In this document: positions 1 to 7,221 of the stretch, piece after piece | Layout: every line of letters begins with the position of its first letter | Position numbering within the stretch: the stretch's first letter is position 1 | Virus record (IMG/VR): IMGVR_UViG_2531839523_000007 | From: a virus | Taxonomy: Duplodnaviria > Heunggongvirae > Uroviricota > Caudoviricetes | Direction: 5' to 3' (one strand) | DNA length: 7,221 nucleotides | Translations under genes and position numbers: made by a program | The notes under the pieces: model-generated | Databases searched by the model: none | Seen by the model: only the letters and a program-made list of their open reading frames with translations | Told to the model about the DNA's origin: nothing

Positions 1-2263
<2,263 letters not shown>

Positions 2264-2329: not shown

Positions 2330-2929
2330 ATGCGTAAACTTTATGCCGCCATTTTGTCCGCAGCCATTTGTCTGGCCGTATCCGGTGCGCCTGCATGGGC
2401 GTCTGAACATCAGTCCACGCTGAGCGCTGGGTATCTTCATGCCCGGACGAACGTTCCCGGCAGTGATGATCTGAACGGGATTAACGTGAAATACCGTTAT
2501 GAGTTTACGGACACACTGGGGCTGGTTACGTCATTCAGCTATGCAGGAGACAAGAATCGCCAGCTGACCCATTACAGCGATACCCGCTGGCATGAAGATT
2601 CCGTGCGTAACCGCTGGTTCAGCGTGATGGCGGGGCCGTCTGTACGCGTGAATGAATGGTTCAGCGCGTATGCGATGGCAGGCGTGGCTTACAGCCGTGT
2701 GTCGACTTTCTCCGGGGATTATCTCCGCGTAACTGACAACAAGGGGAAAACGCACGATGTGCTGACAGGAAGTGATGACGGTTGCCACAGCAACACGTCT
2801 CTGGCGTGGGGGGCTGGCGTGCAGTTTAACCCGACCGAATCCGTGGCCATTGATATTGCTTATGAAGGCTCCGGCAGTGGCGACTGGCGCACTGACGGTT
2901 TCATCGTGGGTGTCGGTTATAAGTTCTGA
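2330..2929 (+). CDS. lom: Lom/Ail-family outer membrane beta-barrel protein (phage moron), 199 aa
   Basis: ATG at 2330 preceded by a GAGG Shine-Dalgarno (2321-2324). N-terminal Sec signal peptide with an AxA site (..GAPAWA/SEHQ). C-terminal half is close to lambda Lom as I recall it, including the ending ..IAYEGSGSGDWRTDGFIVGVGYKF with a terminal aromatic beta-signal. Position between J and stf matches lambda. Confidence 0.93.
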   Translation: MRKLYAAILSAAICLAVSGAPAWASEHQSTLSAGYLHARTNVPGSDDLNGINVKYRYEFTDTLGLVTSFSYAGDKNRQLTHYSDTRWHEDSVRNRWFSVMAGPSVRVNEWFSAYAMAGVAYSRVSTFSGDYLRVTDNKGKTHDVLTGSDDGCHSNTSLAWGAGVQFNPTESVAIDIAYEGSGSGDWRTDGFIVGVGYKF

Positions 2930-2982: not shown

Positions 2983-2993
2983 GTGGGGTGAAT

Positions 2994-5900
2994 ATGGCAG
3001 TAAAGATTTCAGGTGTACTGAAAGACGGCACAGGAAAACCGGTACAGAACTGCACAATCCAGCTGAAAGCAAAACGTAACAGCACCACGGTGGTGGTGAA
3101 CACGCTGGCCTCAGAAAATTCGGATGAAGCCGGGCGTTACAGCATGGACGTTGAGTACGGTCAGTACAGCGTTATTCTGTTGGTGGAAGGATTCCCGCCG
3201 TCACATGCCGGGACCATCACCGTGTATGAAGATTCCCGACCCGGTACGCTGAATGATTTTCTCGGTGCCATGACGGAGGATGATGCCCGTCCGGAGGCTC
3301 TGCGCCGTTTTGAACTGATGGTGGAAGAGGTGGCGCGTAACGCGTCCGCGGTGGCACAGAACACGGCAGCCGCGAAGAAGTCAGCCAGTGATGCCGGCAC
3401 ATCTGCCCGTGAGGCGGCAACCCATGCGACTGATGCTGCAGGCTCAGCGCGTGCAGCCAGCACGTCAGCCGGACAGGCCGCGACTTCGGCTCAGGAGGCG
3501 TCTTCCAGCGCAGGAACGGCATCAACAAAGGCCACTGAAGCATCAAAAAGTGCTGCCGCTGCAGAGTCCTCAAAAAGCGCGGCGGCCACCAGTGCCGGTG
3601 CGGCGAAAACGTCAGAAACGAATGCTGCAGCGTCACAAAAATCAGCAGCCACTTCTGCATCCACTGCGACGACGAAAGCGTCAGAAGCCGCCACTTCAGC
3701 CAGAGATGCGGCGGCCTCCAAAGAGGCGGCAAAATCATCAGAAACGAACGCCTCCACAAGCGCCAGCAGTGCAGCCTCCTCGGCAACGGCGGCAGGAAAT
3801 TCCGTGAAGGCGGCAAAAACGTCCGAGACGAATGCCAGGTCTTCTGAAACGGCAGCGGAACAGAGCGCCTCAGCTGCGGCAGACTCTGAGACAGCAGCTG
3901 CATCATCGGCCCGTGAGGCGTCCATTAAGGCAGAGGAGGCAGCAGTCAGTGCCACCGCCGCCGGAAAATCGGCAGAAAGCGCCGCATCATCCGCTTCAAC
4001 AGCCACAACGAAGGCTGGCGAAGCCACTGAACAGGCCACTGCAGCAGCGAGGGCTGCTTCCGCAGCGAAGACATCCGAAACGAACGCGAAAGCGTCGGAA
4101 ACCAGCGCAGAATCCTCAAAAACGGCTGCCGCATCGTCCGCCAGTTCGGCGGCGTCATCGGCATCATCTGCGTCTGCTTCAAAAGATGAGGCGACCAGAC
4201 AGGCGTCAGCAGCGAAGGGCAGCGCCACGACGGCATCCACGAAGGCGACAGAGGCAGCTGGTAGTGCGACAGCGGCAGCACAGAGCAAAAGTACGGCAGA
4301 ATCCGCAGCAACGCGCGCTGAGACAGCGGCAAAACGTGCAGAGGATATTGCATCCGCCGTGGCGCTTGAGGATGCGAGCACGACGAAAAAGGGGGTAGTA
4401 CAGCTCAGCAGTGCGACCAACAGCACGTCTGAAACGCTGGCGGCAACGCCAAAGGCAGTAAAAGCAGCCTATGACAATGCAGAGAAACGTCTGCAGAAAG
4501 ACCAGAACGGTGCTGATATTCCCGACAAGGACCGCTTCCTGAGTAACATTAATGTTTACAGCAAAGGTGAAGTGGATCAGAAAAAGGGGATGCGATACGT
4601 TGTGGTAAATGCCCCGGCGGGTGTCCAGGAAGGTAAATATTATCCGTTAGTGATAAAAAGGAATGACAGCCATCGGGCATCCCGCGTTGTCATTTCAACG
4701 CCAAGTCGCTCAGCTAATCACAGAATGAATAATTGTGAGTTTAATGGTTTTGTTTGCGCAGGCGGCTGGACGGACCGGGGTAGCTATGCCTGTGGTATGT
4801 TCTGGGCTTATTCATCATCGGAACGCGCTATTCATTCCATTCTGATGAGTAATAAAGGCGATACCGTAGACAGCGTATTCTATATAGAAGGTGGGGCATT
4901 TCCCGTAGAGGTCTTTTTAGAAGAAGGTCTCTCCGTTACTGCACCTGCTTCTGATTATATTGTTGCTGAAACGACTTATAAATTTGGCGCAACTGATCCT
5001 TATTCTGAATCAGTTGCGGTAAATTTAATTTTAGATTTTAAACAAGGTAATGGATTTTATAGTTCGTATCCTGTTTTGAGTAAGTCAGACATTAGCGGGA
5101 ATAAGATTTACGCTAATGATGAAGTTATTGTCCGTAGTCAGAACGCGTTAAGGATGATTGCAGGTGATTACGGTGTCATATGGCGAAATGATGGAGCAAA
5201 TACTTACTTGCTCATGACTGATAAAGGCGACCAGTACGGTGGCTGGAACGGTCTTCGACCATTTGCAGTAAATAACGCAACAGGTGAAGTGACGATCAAT
5301 ACACCACTTAATTCTCCTAAGGGGATTAAGGGAAATTCTGATACAGCTACGAAACTTCAGACAGCAATAAAAATATCTGGTGTTTCGTTTGATGGTTCTA
5401 CTGATATCACTTTAACCGCTGCGCATGTTGCTGCTTTTGCCAGAAGAGCAACGGATACGTATGCCGATGCGGATGGGGGCGTTCCCTGGAATGCCGAATC
5501 AGGCGCTTACAATGTCACTCGCTCTGGCGACAGCTATATTCTGGTTAACTTCTATACCGGAGTCGGAAGTTGCCGGACCTTGCAGATGAAGGCGCATTAC
5601 AGAAATGGTGGTCTGTTCTACCGTTCTTCAAGAGACGGTTATGGTTTTGAGGATGACTGGGCAGAAGTTTATACCTCGAAAAATCTTCCACCAGAAAGCT
5701 ACCCAGTCGGCGCACCAATCCCGTGGCCATCAGATACCGTTCCGTCTGGTTATGCCCTGATGCAGGGGCAGACTTTTGACAAATCTGCTTACCCGAAACT
5801 TGCAGCTGCTTATCCGTCAGGCGTGATCCCTGATATGCGTGGCTGGATGATTAAGGGCAAGCCCGCCAGTGATCGAGCCGTATTGTCTCAGGAACAGGAC

Positions 5901-6410
5901 GGCATTAAATCACACACCCACAGCGCCAGCGTATCCAGTACGGATTTGGGGACGAAAACCACATCGTCGTTTGATTACGGCACTAAATCCACGAATAACA
6001 CTGGTGCGCATACCCATAGTGTTAGCGGTACGGCTGCTTCAGCCGGTGCACATACCCATTCGATGACATTTGTTTCAGGTGGTTCCAGTGGTGCTCCGGG
6101 AAGTGGATCACCTGATTATTCTAAATACAGTGTTAACACTTCTTCTGCAGGCGCTCATACGCACTCTGTATCGGGTACTGCTGCAAGCGCAGGTGCACAC
6201 GCGCATACTGTCGGTATTGGTGCTCATACGCACTCTGTATCGGGTACTGCTGCAAGCGCAGGTGCACACGCGCATACTGTCGGTATTGGTGCTCATACGC
6301 ACTCCGTTGCGATTGGTTCACATGGACACACCATCACCGTTAACGCTGCTGGTAACGCGGAAAACACCGTCAAAAACATCGCATTTAACTATATTGTGAG
6401 GCTTGCATAA
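2994..6410 (+). CDS. stf: Side tail fibre protein, 1138 aa; mosaic of a conserved N-terminal anchor, an Ala/Ser/Thr-rich shaft, an AT-rich central module, a tail-collar-like domain and a His-box (HxH) tip
   Basis: ATG at 2994 gives [26 protein letters not shown]..., the canonical lambda Stf N-terminus as I recall it; the GTG at 2988 used by the ORF track is probably not the start. A GGGG/GGTG SD-like sequence lies at 2985-2990. Internal [24 protein letters not shown] phage tail-fibre repeat motif (about 4390-4460). Collar-like signature [47 protein letters not shown] (about 5680-5860). About ten HxH motifs of the GAHTHS type (about 5905-6335). Stop TAA at 6408-6410. Confidence 0.93.
3340..4380 (+). 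repeat. Low-complexity Ala/Ser/Thr-rich coding repeat region within stf (predicted fibre shaft) with recurring AKTSETNA units
   Basis: Imperfect dispersed repeats of the type aaaacgtcagaaacgaatgc at about 3603-3625, 3731-3752, 3811-3837 and 4062-4088. The protein is A/S/T/E/K-dominated. Lack of stop codons in several frames generates the spurious overlapping ORFs in the track. Confidence 0.8.
6153..6304 (+). repeat. Perfect in-frame 69-bp tandem duplication (two full copies plus a 14-bp start of a third) in the His-box tip region of stf
   Basis: 6153-6221 and 6222-6290 are identical (gctcatacgcactctgtatcgggtactgctgcaagcgcaggtgcacacgcgcatactgtcggtattggt), encoding [23 protein letters not shown] twice. 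6291-6304 repeats the first 14 nt and then diverges. An older copy at about 6003-6066 encodes nearly the same peptide with different codons. Confidence 0.9.
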
Positions 6411-6994
6411 TGGCATTCAGAATGAGTGAACAACCACGGGCCATAAAAATTTATAATCTGCTGGCCGGAACTAATGAATTTATTGGTGAAGGTGATGCAT
6501 ATATTCCGCCTCATACAGGTCTGCCAGCAAACAGTACCGATATTGCACCGCCAGATATTCCGGCTGGCTTCGTGGCTGTTTTCAACAGTGATGAGTCATC
6601 GTGGCATCTCGTTGAAGATCATCGGGGTAAAACGGTTTATGACGTGGCTTCCGGCGACGCGTTATTTATTTCTGAACTCGGTCCGTTACCGGAAAATGTT
6701 ACCTGGTTATCGCCGGAAGGGGAGTTTCAGAAGTGGAACGGCACAGCCTGGGTGAAGGATACGGAAGCAGAAAAACTGTTCCGGATCCGGGAGGCGGAAG
6801 AAACAAAAAACAACCTGATGCAGGTAGCCAGTGAGCATATTGCGCCGCTTCAGGATGCTGCAGATCTGGAAATTGCAACGGAGGAAGAAATCTCGTTGCT
6901 GGAAGCATGGAAAAAGTATCGGGTATTGCTGAACCGTGTTGATACATCAACTGCACCTGATATTGAGTGGCCTACGAACCCTGTCAGGGAGTAA
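6410..6994 (+). CDS. tfa: Tail fibre assembly protein (chaperone), 194 aa
   Basis: ATG at 6410-6412 overlaps the stf stop (TAATG). The translation [61 protein letters not shown]... matches lambda Tfa (194 aa) as I recall it. GAGG lies 9 nt upstream. Stop TAA at 6992-6994. Confidence 0.93.
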
Positions 6995-7008
6995 TCATTG
7001 GGATTATG

Positions 7009-7041
7009 CCGCAGCACGTCTTAAGCAAGAACGTGCTGCGG
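7009..7041. terminator. Hairpin between convergent genes; candidate bidirectional terminator or protein-binding palindrome
   Basis: Perfect 11-bp inverted repeat CCGCAGCACGT (7009-7019) / ACGTGCTGCGG (7031-7041) around an 11-nt loop containing the palindrome CTTAAG. The T-run TTTTTT (7052-7057) is 10 nt downstream, so it is not a canonical intrinsic terminator on either strand. Confidence 0.4.
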
Positions 7042-7048
7042 TTGGATG

Positions 7049-7221
7049 CTATTTTTTCCCTGAAGCGGAAAACATTACTACAGTACCTTGAACCTTGGTT
7101 TTAACATTCTCGAAATGCTCTGAGAGTATATGTGTTAAGCCTTCTTCGGAATCTTTTGTGTTTGAAAAGATGCCTTTCTGATTGTAAATGCGCATCAGTT
7201 TTTGACCGAAGCTATTGTGCA
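7049..7221 (-). CDS. Hypothetical protein, C-terminal 57 codons only; 5' end lies beyond the right edge; convergent with tfa; AT-rich
   Basis: Minus-strand frame is open from the window edge to a TAG stop (plus-strand cta at 7049-7051), translating ...HNSFGQKLMRIYNQKGIFSNTKDSEEGLTHILSEHFENVKTKVQGTVVMFSASGKK*. An uninterrupted 57-codon frame in roughly 38% GC DNA is unlikely by chance. Absent from the ORF track because the start is off-window. I do not recognise the family. Confidence 0.45.
   Translation of the reverse strand, partial: HNSFGQKLMRIYNQKGIFSNTKDSEEGLTHILSEHFENVKTKVQGTVVMFSASGKK

Follow-up and report, generated by a model that had tools for sequence, protein, structure and literature searches.

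The 7,221-nucleotide (nt) window analysed here is the whole stretch given for the virus record IMGVR_UViG_2531839523_000007 (Caudoviricetes), and at its right edge it runs into a short AT-rich reading frame on the minus strand, just beyond the tail fibre assembly gene tfa. From sequence comparison we identify this feature as the last 56 codons, about a quarter, of ybcY, an annotated and widespread prophage methyltransferase gene. We suggest that it is very probably the 3′ end of an intact copy, whose product would be an accessory methyltransferase expressed in the lysogen, with a small or lipid-like substrate. In lambdoid prophages it forms an accessory insert (‘moron’) that consists of this one gene. 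The gene is already known as ybcY in K-12, under its RefSeq name in thousands of genomes and as PHROG 2132.

The frame occupies 7049-7219 (−), has 56 sense codons followed by a stop, and reads HNSFGQKLMRIYNQKGIFSNTKDSEEGLTHILSEHFENVKTKVQGTVVMFSASGKK* in translation; the stop is TAG, the complement of 7049-7051. An earlier description made from the letters of the window (the sequence-only reading) had it open for 57 codons up to the edge: the open frame is real, but the count includes the stop. The remaining two minus frames over the edge stretch contain 2 and 4 stops. The GC content of 7049-7221 is 37.6% against 52.9% in the whole window and 48.2% in tfa, in line with the drop to about 38% reported in that reading, and the frame is oriented tail-to-tail with tfa, with 54 bp between the convergent stop codons. 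The flip of strand polarity right after tfa, also reported there, is real, because J, lom, the tail fibre gene and tfa all lie on the plus strand with strong Pfam matches. A run of 56 open codons in one given frame occurs in about 1.6% of shuffles of the AT-rich edge stretch; therefore the frame by itself is only suggestive and does not prove a gene.

That the frame is a real gene follows from its identity with an intact copy and from its conservation. The last 322 bases of the window (6900-7221) match E. coli MB15 with 100% identity, and in that genome the frame extends into an intact 222-codon, 669-base coding sequence (WP_122987548.1) annotated as class I S-adenosylmethionine (SAM)-dependent methyltransferase; about 500 further bases of the gene fall outside the window edge. 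The gene is conserved across genera, and the ratio of nonsynonymous to synonymous substitution rates (dN/dS) is 0.22 and 0.17 against two unsaturated comparators and 0.22-0.26 for the visible 56 codons alone, so it is under purifying selection. Past the methyltransferase gene MB15 carries a tfa remnant (tfaX), appY, ompT, envY, ybcH and nfrA, and the locus is the DLP12 prophage locus. The counterpart in K-12 MG1655 is the pseudogene ybcY (b0562) of the DLP12 prophage, situated between tfaD and tfaX, which shares about 99% DNA identity and conserved flanks with the MB15 gene. A full-length profile match and orthology with b0562 place the protein in the YbcY/PHROG 2132 family, and the 56 residues encoded in the window align without gaps with the family C-terminus. 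MB15 is also the best complete-genome match of the whole window, with 97.2% identity; the difference from the 100% identity of the last 322 bases is the usual mosaicism of lambdoid tail regions.

In K-12 and its derivatives ybcY is inactivated by a 2-bp deletion that removes part of the Met5 ATG, and the rest of the gene lies outside the window behind a promoter spacer bound by H-NS. The open frame might then be the undisturbed tail of a pseudogene, as in K-12. We consider this very unlikely. The gene is present in 3825 of the 5426 complete E. coli genomes (about 70%), everywhere at ≥95% identity, and all but a few carriers (3799 of 3825) have at least 80% of its length; the copies listed outside the K-12/HB101 lineage are full-length, with 669 bases, and those of K-12/HB101 are 2 bases short. 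The visible part is identical to the intact copies. Moreover, the window is not K-12-like, because it has the complete J-lom-stf-tfa module, which DLP12 of K-12 lacks.

The C-terminal peptide, which the sequence-only reading could match to no family it could name, ends a class I SAM-dependent methyltransferase, the protein that K-12 ybcY would encode if it were intact. It could not be named from the window, as the 56 residues seen there come from the C-terminal portion peculiar to the family, and matches to solved methyltransferases end at about residue 170. Profile searches of the whole protein, which had been proposed as a check together with structure prediction, place it above the Pfam gathering scores of Methyltransf_12 (37.6 bits, cut-off 30), _23, _25 and _11, and match PHROG 2132 (‘unknown function’) with E 5.2e-156, residues 5-222 on profile positions 1-218. 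Among the NCBIfam models, searched with 89 homologues, the commonest weak resemblances are to CpaM, RquA, Legionella-type PmtA, BioC and UbiE/UbiG, and every curated model stays far below its cut-off for the family. The sequence relatives in the PDB (JHAMT, UbiG) match the Rossmann core only.

A family member of 98% identity was modelled with AlphaFold from an alignment of the 89 homologues, and the model is confident, with a predicted local distance difference test (pLDDT) of 90.3 and a predicted template modelling score (pTM) of 0.87. It consists of an N-terminal helical cap and a Rossmann core, in which the seven-stranded beta-sheet of class I methyltransferases is predicted. The SAM-binding motifs of this class fall beyond the window edge and are read from the genome copy that matches it at 100%: motif I, D59-x-G-x-G-x-G65, reads DIGVGTG at 59-65; D59, G61, G63, G65 and D81 do not vary among the homologues, and D106 and D120 are each kept by at least 90% of them. 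The family-specific signature comprises Y16, Y24-D-W-W27, H129-C130, H167-N168, Y178-N179, N186 and D189. In the model the window-encoded part forms a helix (169-180), a conserved loop, a second helix (191-199) and the last strands, 202-210 and 213-221, which make a beta hairpin. The loop holds the invariant residues Y178, N179, G182, I183, F184, N186 and D189, and the window-encoded part contains 10 of the 45 invariant alignment columns, in proportion to its length.

The protein is predicted to be a soluble cytoplasmic enzyme of 24.5 kDa. No membrane segment or signal peptide is predicted (maximum 19-residue hydropathy 0.95, N-terminus MVKLMKKNTDDG hydrophilic) and there is no known effector domain, so the proposed check for secretion signals speaks against export by a signal peptide. 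Neither a secreted effector nor a DNA invertase nor an alternative fibre gene, all of which had been considered for this position, appears to apply, since the whole protein is a methyltransferase domain. A profile search of 1.84 billion cluster representatives, made with a view to domain fusions, gave 419 clusters at E <=1e-30, nearly all single-domain, of 210-240 amino acids (aa), with a few longer ones.

The structural neighbours of the model are PmtA, UbiG/Coq5, JHAMT and phosphoethanolamine methyltransferases, none clearly best, and the fold is predicted to be a Rossmann methyltransferase of the small-molecule type. From these fold neighbours and the absence of nucleic-acid-binding features we infer the probable class of substrate. 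YbcY is phage-borne and SAM-dependent, and the usual role of phage-borne methyltransferases is to shield phage DNA from restriction; in a search for defence systems PADLOC gave one weak, non-significant match, mad2 (E 0.003, 14.4 bits). A DNA methyltransferase is nevertheless barely conceivable here and effectively refuted by the motifs: YbcY has no (D/N/S)PP(Y/F/W) or PCQ catalytic motif and no target-recognition domain, its lone ENV at residue 203 is without a PCQ partner, no Pfam DNA-methylase family matches, no DNA methyltransferase is among the structural neighbours listed, and many homologues are chromosomal, outside phage or restriction context. Methylation of a macromolecule (tRNA, rRNA or protein) instead of a small molecule is an unlikely alternative, as the model shows a bare 218-222 aa domain with no RNA-binding or substrate-recognition extension, and small-molecule enzymes head the PDB matches by sequence and fold and stand behind the NCBIfam models that most members match.

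A more specific proposal within the small-molecule class is a PmtA-/PEAMT-like N-methyltransferase, with phosphatidylethanolamine or another head group of the ethanolamine/choline type as its substrate, by which the lysogen would gain methylated phospholipids not normally made by E. coli. The top Foldseek match in the PDB is Rubellimicrobium PmtA 8YS9 (E 3.5e-12, template modelling score 0.61-0.67), several phosphoethanolamine N-methyltransferases and glycine/sarcosine methyltransferases also rank high structurally, and the NCBIfam PmtA model matches weakly in 74 of the 89 family members. The aromatic residues of the N-terminal helix (Y16, Y24-D-W-W27) are reminiscent of the head-group pocket that is lined by Tyr and Trp in PmtA (PMC11446283), and the homologue on the Erwinia plasmid pEA29 adjoins a choline transporter gene. 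However, the family reaches about 15-30 bits with the PmtA model, whose cut-off is 390 (PLipidMtase_Leg 15.6 bits), and the transporter is a neighbour in one context only. PmtA enzymes are defined by the equivalog cut-off, the catalytic Tyr with the phosphate-binding His/Ser (Tyr10, His117, Ser120) and a membrane-binding basic surface; YbcY scores below that cut-off, and its PDB profile match to 8YS9 (E 0.054) covers the core only. We regard this assignment as quite improbable. Nor do the curated models place the protein in UbiE/UbiG: they match weakly in 21-24 of the 89 members (best E 5e-6 and 1.8e-4), none near the TIGR01934/TIGR01983 cut-offs, with a PDB UbiG match of E ~1e-3.

As for transcription, Shimada et al. 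2014 list the ybcY/tfaX spacer of K-12 among the constitutive RpoD promoters found in an in vitro RNA-polymerase-binding screen, report it as H-NS-bound and give the ybcY promoter as TTGATT-17-TATAAC (PMC3946193). Exactly this sequence is present in the MB15 locus (L001) at 9847-9819 (−), and a second candidate promoter, TTAACC-16-CATAAT, lies just upstream. The annotation (MVKLM..., L001 9804-9818 (−), beyond the window edge) probably begins the gene four codons too early: Met5 is the likely real start, giving 218 aa, because the −10 element of the promoter abuts the annotated ATG, the homologues and the PHROG 2132 profile begin at Met5 and the K-12 deletion sits there. Met5 is preceded by GGTGA, a possible ribosome-binding site. 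ybcY gave no phenotype in a Hha toxicity screen; its other mentions in the literature are incidental, and our search found no study of YbcY-family biochemistry.

On the tfa side the gene is bounded by a GC-rich hairpin, which is likely a 3′-end or terminator element shared by tfa and the methyltransferase gene. Its RNA fold has −28.6 kcal/mol on the plus strand (z −4.4) and −23.9 on the minus strand (z −5.2), and none of 200 shuffles was as stable. The promoter and hairpin signals would fit an independently transcribed moron.

A separate observation concerns the same hairpin: at 6978-7040 (+) it equals, letter for letter, the 3′-terminal hairpin of the Rfam family CssrB (Shigella small RNA B). 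The CssrB model scores only 32.6 bits there against a gathering score of 76, because its 133-nt body is absent. Possibly the Shigella RNA is transcribed up to this same prophage hairpin. A literature search on CssrB gave nothing relevant.

The gene behaves as optional cargo. E. coli WY517-2 has the J-lom-stf-tfa-hairpin module with no methyltransferase gene, its match ending at 7045 before an integrase remnant; therefore the gene is optional at this site and its left boundary lies at the hairpin. In phage ev243 the gene stands behind a different fibre module, so that between conserved phage genes it shows the presence and absence of a phage moron. The tfa-hairpin-methyltransferase junction occurs in 3062 genomes. 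Among sequenced phages, 15 carry the gene, with ev243, 2G7b and the PhiR series among them. In a DNA comparison of eight copies, every one was AT-rich (35-47% GC). The proposal of accessory cargo at the junction beyond tfa holds in this sense: the element is optional, AT-rich, a single gene and on the opposite strand.

The last ~165 bases of tfa (window ~6830-6994) are repeated with about 84% identity as the tfaX fragment beyond the methyltransferase gene (L001 9983-10135; alignment with MB15 L001 9930-10150), and this right-hand copy is a pseudogene with an internal stop. The two direct copies of the tfa 3′ end look like a scar of tail-fibre module exchange, and their bracketing of the gene in MB15 suggests that it moves with, or stays through, tail-fibre module recombination. 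The Rfam family IS009 (RF02111) also falls on these sequences, with 223.6 bits (gathering score 117) at 6753-6951 (+) and with 110 bits on tfaX (L001 9898-10101). The first match lies wholly within the tfa reading frame, and this ‘RNA family’ seems to coincide with a conserved 3′ stretch of the coding sequences for tail-fibre assembly, not with a separate RNA gene.

Relatives are found well beyond E. coli prophages, and in every context examined (chromosome, prophage, plasmid, near insertion sequence (IS) elements) the gene stands as a single-gene unit. Homologues in Salmonella and Enterobacter are chromosomal and non-phage, a Salmonella prophage has one between int and a tail-fibre assembly gene, those of Klebsiella and Yersinia lie in islets, one is on a ccdAB plasmid-like contig and others adjoin IS elements. 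About 600 Klebsiella plasmids carry a homologue divergent from rmpA, often in two copies per plasmid; on K. pneumoniae pRJF999 (L019 5995-6648) a 64%-identical one lies, divergent, beside rmpA-rmpD-rmpC, peg-344 and iroN. Full-length homologues are encoded by pEA29 of Erwinia amylovora, the ubiquitous fire-blight plasmid (L021 4001-4660, 53% identity), and by the bovine-type virulence plasmid pVAPN1557 of Rhodococcus equi (L020 4968-5654, 41.5% identity). Members of the family thus turn up repeatedly on plasmids of host-associated bacteria, and in different phyla. In the literature the Klebsiella homologue figures as a liver-abscess marker, through rmpA linkage only and with no functional test (PMC5126061). 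One may go further and see in the family a mobile host-adaptation enzyme of prophages, virulence plasmids and genomic islets, which methylates an envelope lipid head group, e.g. phosphatidylethanolamine, or another small metabolite. The carrier's surface or stress properties would then be changed, which would matter in the host or against other phages; we hold this wider proposal to be improbable.

For the gene in the window we propose the following scheme. It would be transcribed leftward, as a unit separate from the late tail operon. The sigma-70 promoter would lie in the AT-rich spacer between the gene and the tfaX remnant, where H-NS binds, and the transcript would end at the hairpin shared with tfa. 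The enzyme would methylate a small or lipid-like metabolite of the UbiE/UbiG/PmtA/phosphoethanolamine-methyltransferase kind, not DNA, and the window-encoded C-terminal helix-loop-helix may serve as a substrate lid. The benefit would go to the lysogen (lysogenic conversion).

Several points weigh against this scheme. Only a quarter of the gene falls inside the window, whose best match over its whole length is 97.2%, so that we infer the intactness of the present copy. Promoter-like matches are no more frequent in the region than in shuffles, the basis for the promoter is in vitro RNA-polymerase binding together with consensus matching, and no lysogen expression data were found; with H-NS bound, the gene may be largely silent. 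There is no T run directly after the hairpin on either strand and therefore its terminator function is putative; a strict terminator scan made no call, which leaves a canonical intrinsic terminator unsupported. Finally, no conserved neighbour that could serve as a pathway clue was found in eleven contexts, and since no partner gene recurs among them we rejected the neighbourhood as a source of function.

The coordinates of the features are collected in the table below. Two annotations in the same stretch deserve a remark. The longest open reading frame of the tail fibre gene begins with GTG at 2988 (2988-6410 (+), 1140 aa), and the start of its RefSeq orthologue corresponds to position 3063 (1115 aa). 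RefSeq also has a 45-aa ‘hypothetical protein’ (WP_001309429.1) at 6967-7104 (+), which overlaps the tfa end, the hairpin and the methyltransferase gene end; it has no match in a Pfam search and is probably a spurious call.

Features of the window (positions count from its first letter; a dot marks a feature with no assigned strand)
Feature	Position	Strand	Basis or remark
J, C-terminus	65-2263	+	strong Pfam match
lom	2330-2929	+	strong Pfam match
Tail fibre, 1115 aa	3063-6410	+	strong Pfam match
tfa (tail fibre assembly)	6410-6994	+	Pfam Caudo_TAP, E 3.8e-44
GC-rich hairpin, 35 nt	7008..7042	.	GCCGCAGCACGTCTT-AAGC-AAG.ACGTGCTGCGGT
Left boundary of optional cargo	7043..7048	.	homology with methyltransferase-less prophage stops at 7045
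ybcY-family class I SAM-dependent methyltransferase gene, 3′ end	7049..7221	-	translation; 100% identity to MB15 L001 9150-9322
ybcY codons 167-222	7052-7219	-	TAG stop 7049-7051; bases 7220-7221 belong to codon 166

The locus itself matters little. The sequence-only reading had presented the element as unknown cargo, the least characterised in the window, and had itself counted it as a refutation if the frame proved to be the tail of a well-known phage gene. This is the case: the gene has a name, ybcY/PHROG 2132, and is found with an annotation in about 70% of complete E. coli genomes, so that the claim of novelty fails and the locus yields no discovery. Since relatives accompany well-known virulence loci, a substrate assignment would be useful, for the family rather than for this locus.

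Compared with the enzymes of known function (UbiE/UbiG/Coq5, PmtA, phosphoethanolamine methyltransferase and JHAMT), YbcY has 12-21% identity and a likeness confined to the Rossmann core; the signature H129-C130, H167-N168, Y178-N179...N186...D189 is specific to the YbcY family, as against UbiE-, PmtA- or JHAMT-type enzymes. Much closer is the ‘putative SAM-dependent methyltransferase’ next to rmpA of Klebsiella pneumoniae (BAH65943.1, pK2044; WP_011251259.1), which belongs to the same family with 64% identity over 97% of the length and is likewise a single gene on a mobile element. However, it lies on a plasmid instead of a prophage, in divergent orientation to rmpA, and its association with virulence is by linkage only (PMC5126061).

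The closest counterpart is ybcY of K-12: it is the same gene at the DNA level, with the same promoter sequence and with tfa on its left via the same hairpin, and on the right MB15 shares with it the tfaX remnant, appY and ompT. Unlike the K-12 copy, which has the 2-bp deletion at Met5 and no J-lom-stf, the copies that match the window are intact and stand in a complete tail module.

Last but not least, lambdoid morons, such as lom and bor of lambda, are independently expressed accessory genes inserted between conserved phage genes. The hairpin beside the gene described here is not a canonical intrinsic terminator, and expression in the lysogen and a benefit to the host are putative in this case. 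The gene resembles the morons as a single lower-GC gene that runs opposite to the late operon, carries candidate signals of its own, is optional among otherwise identical modules and lies between tfa and the attachment site.
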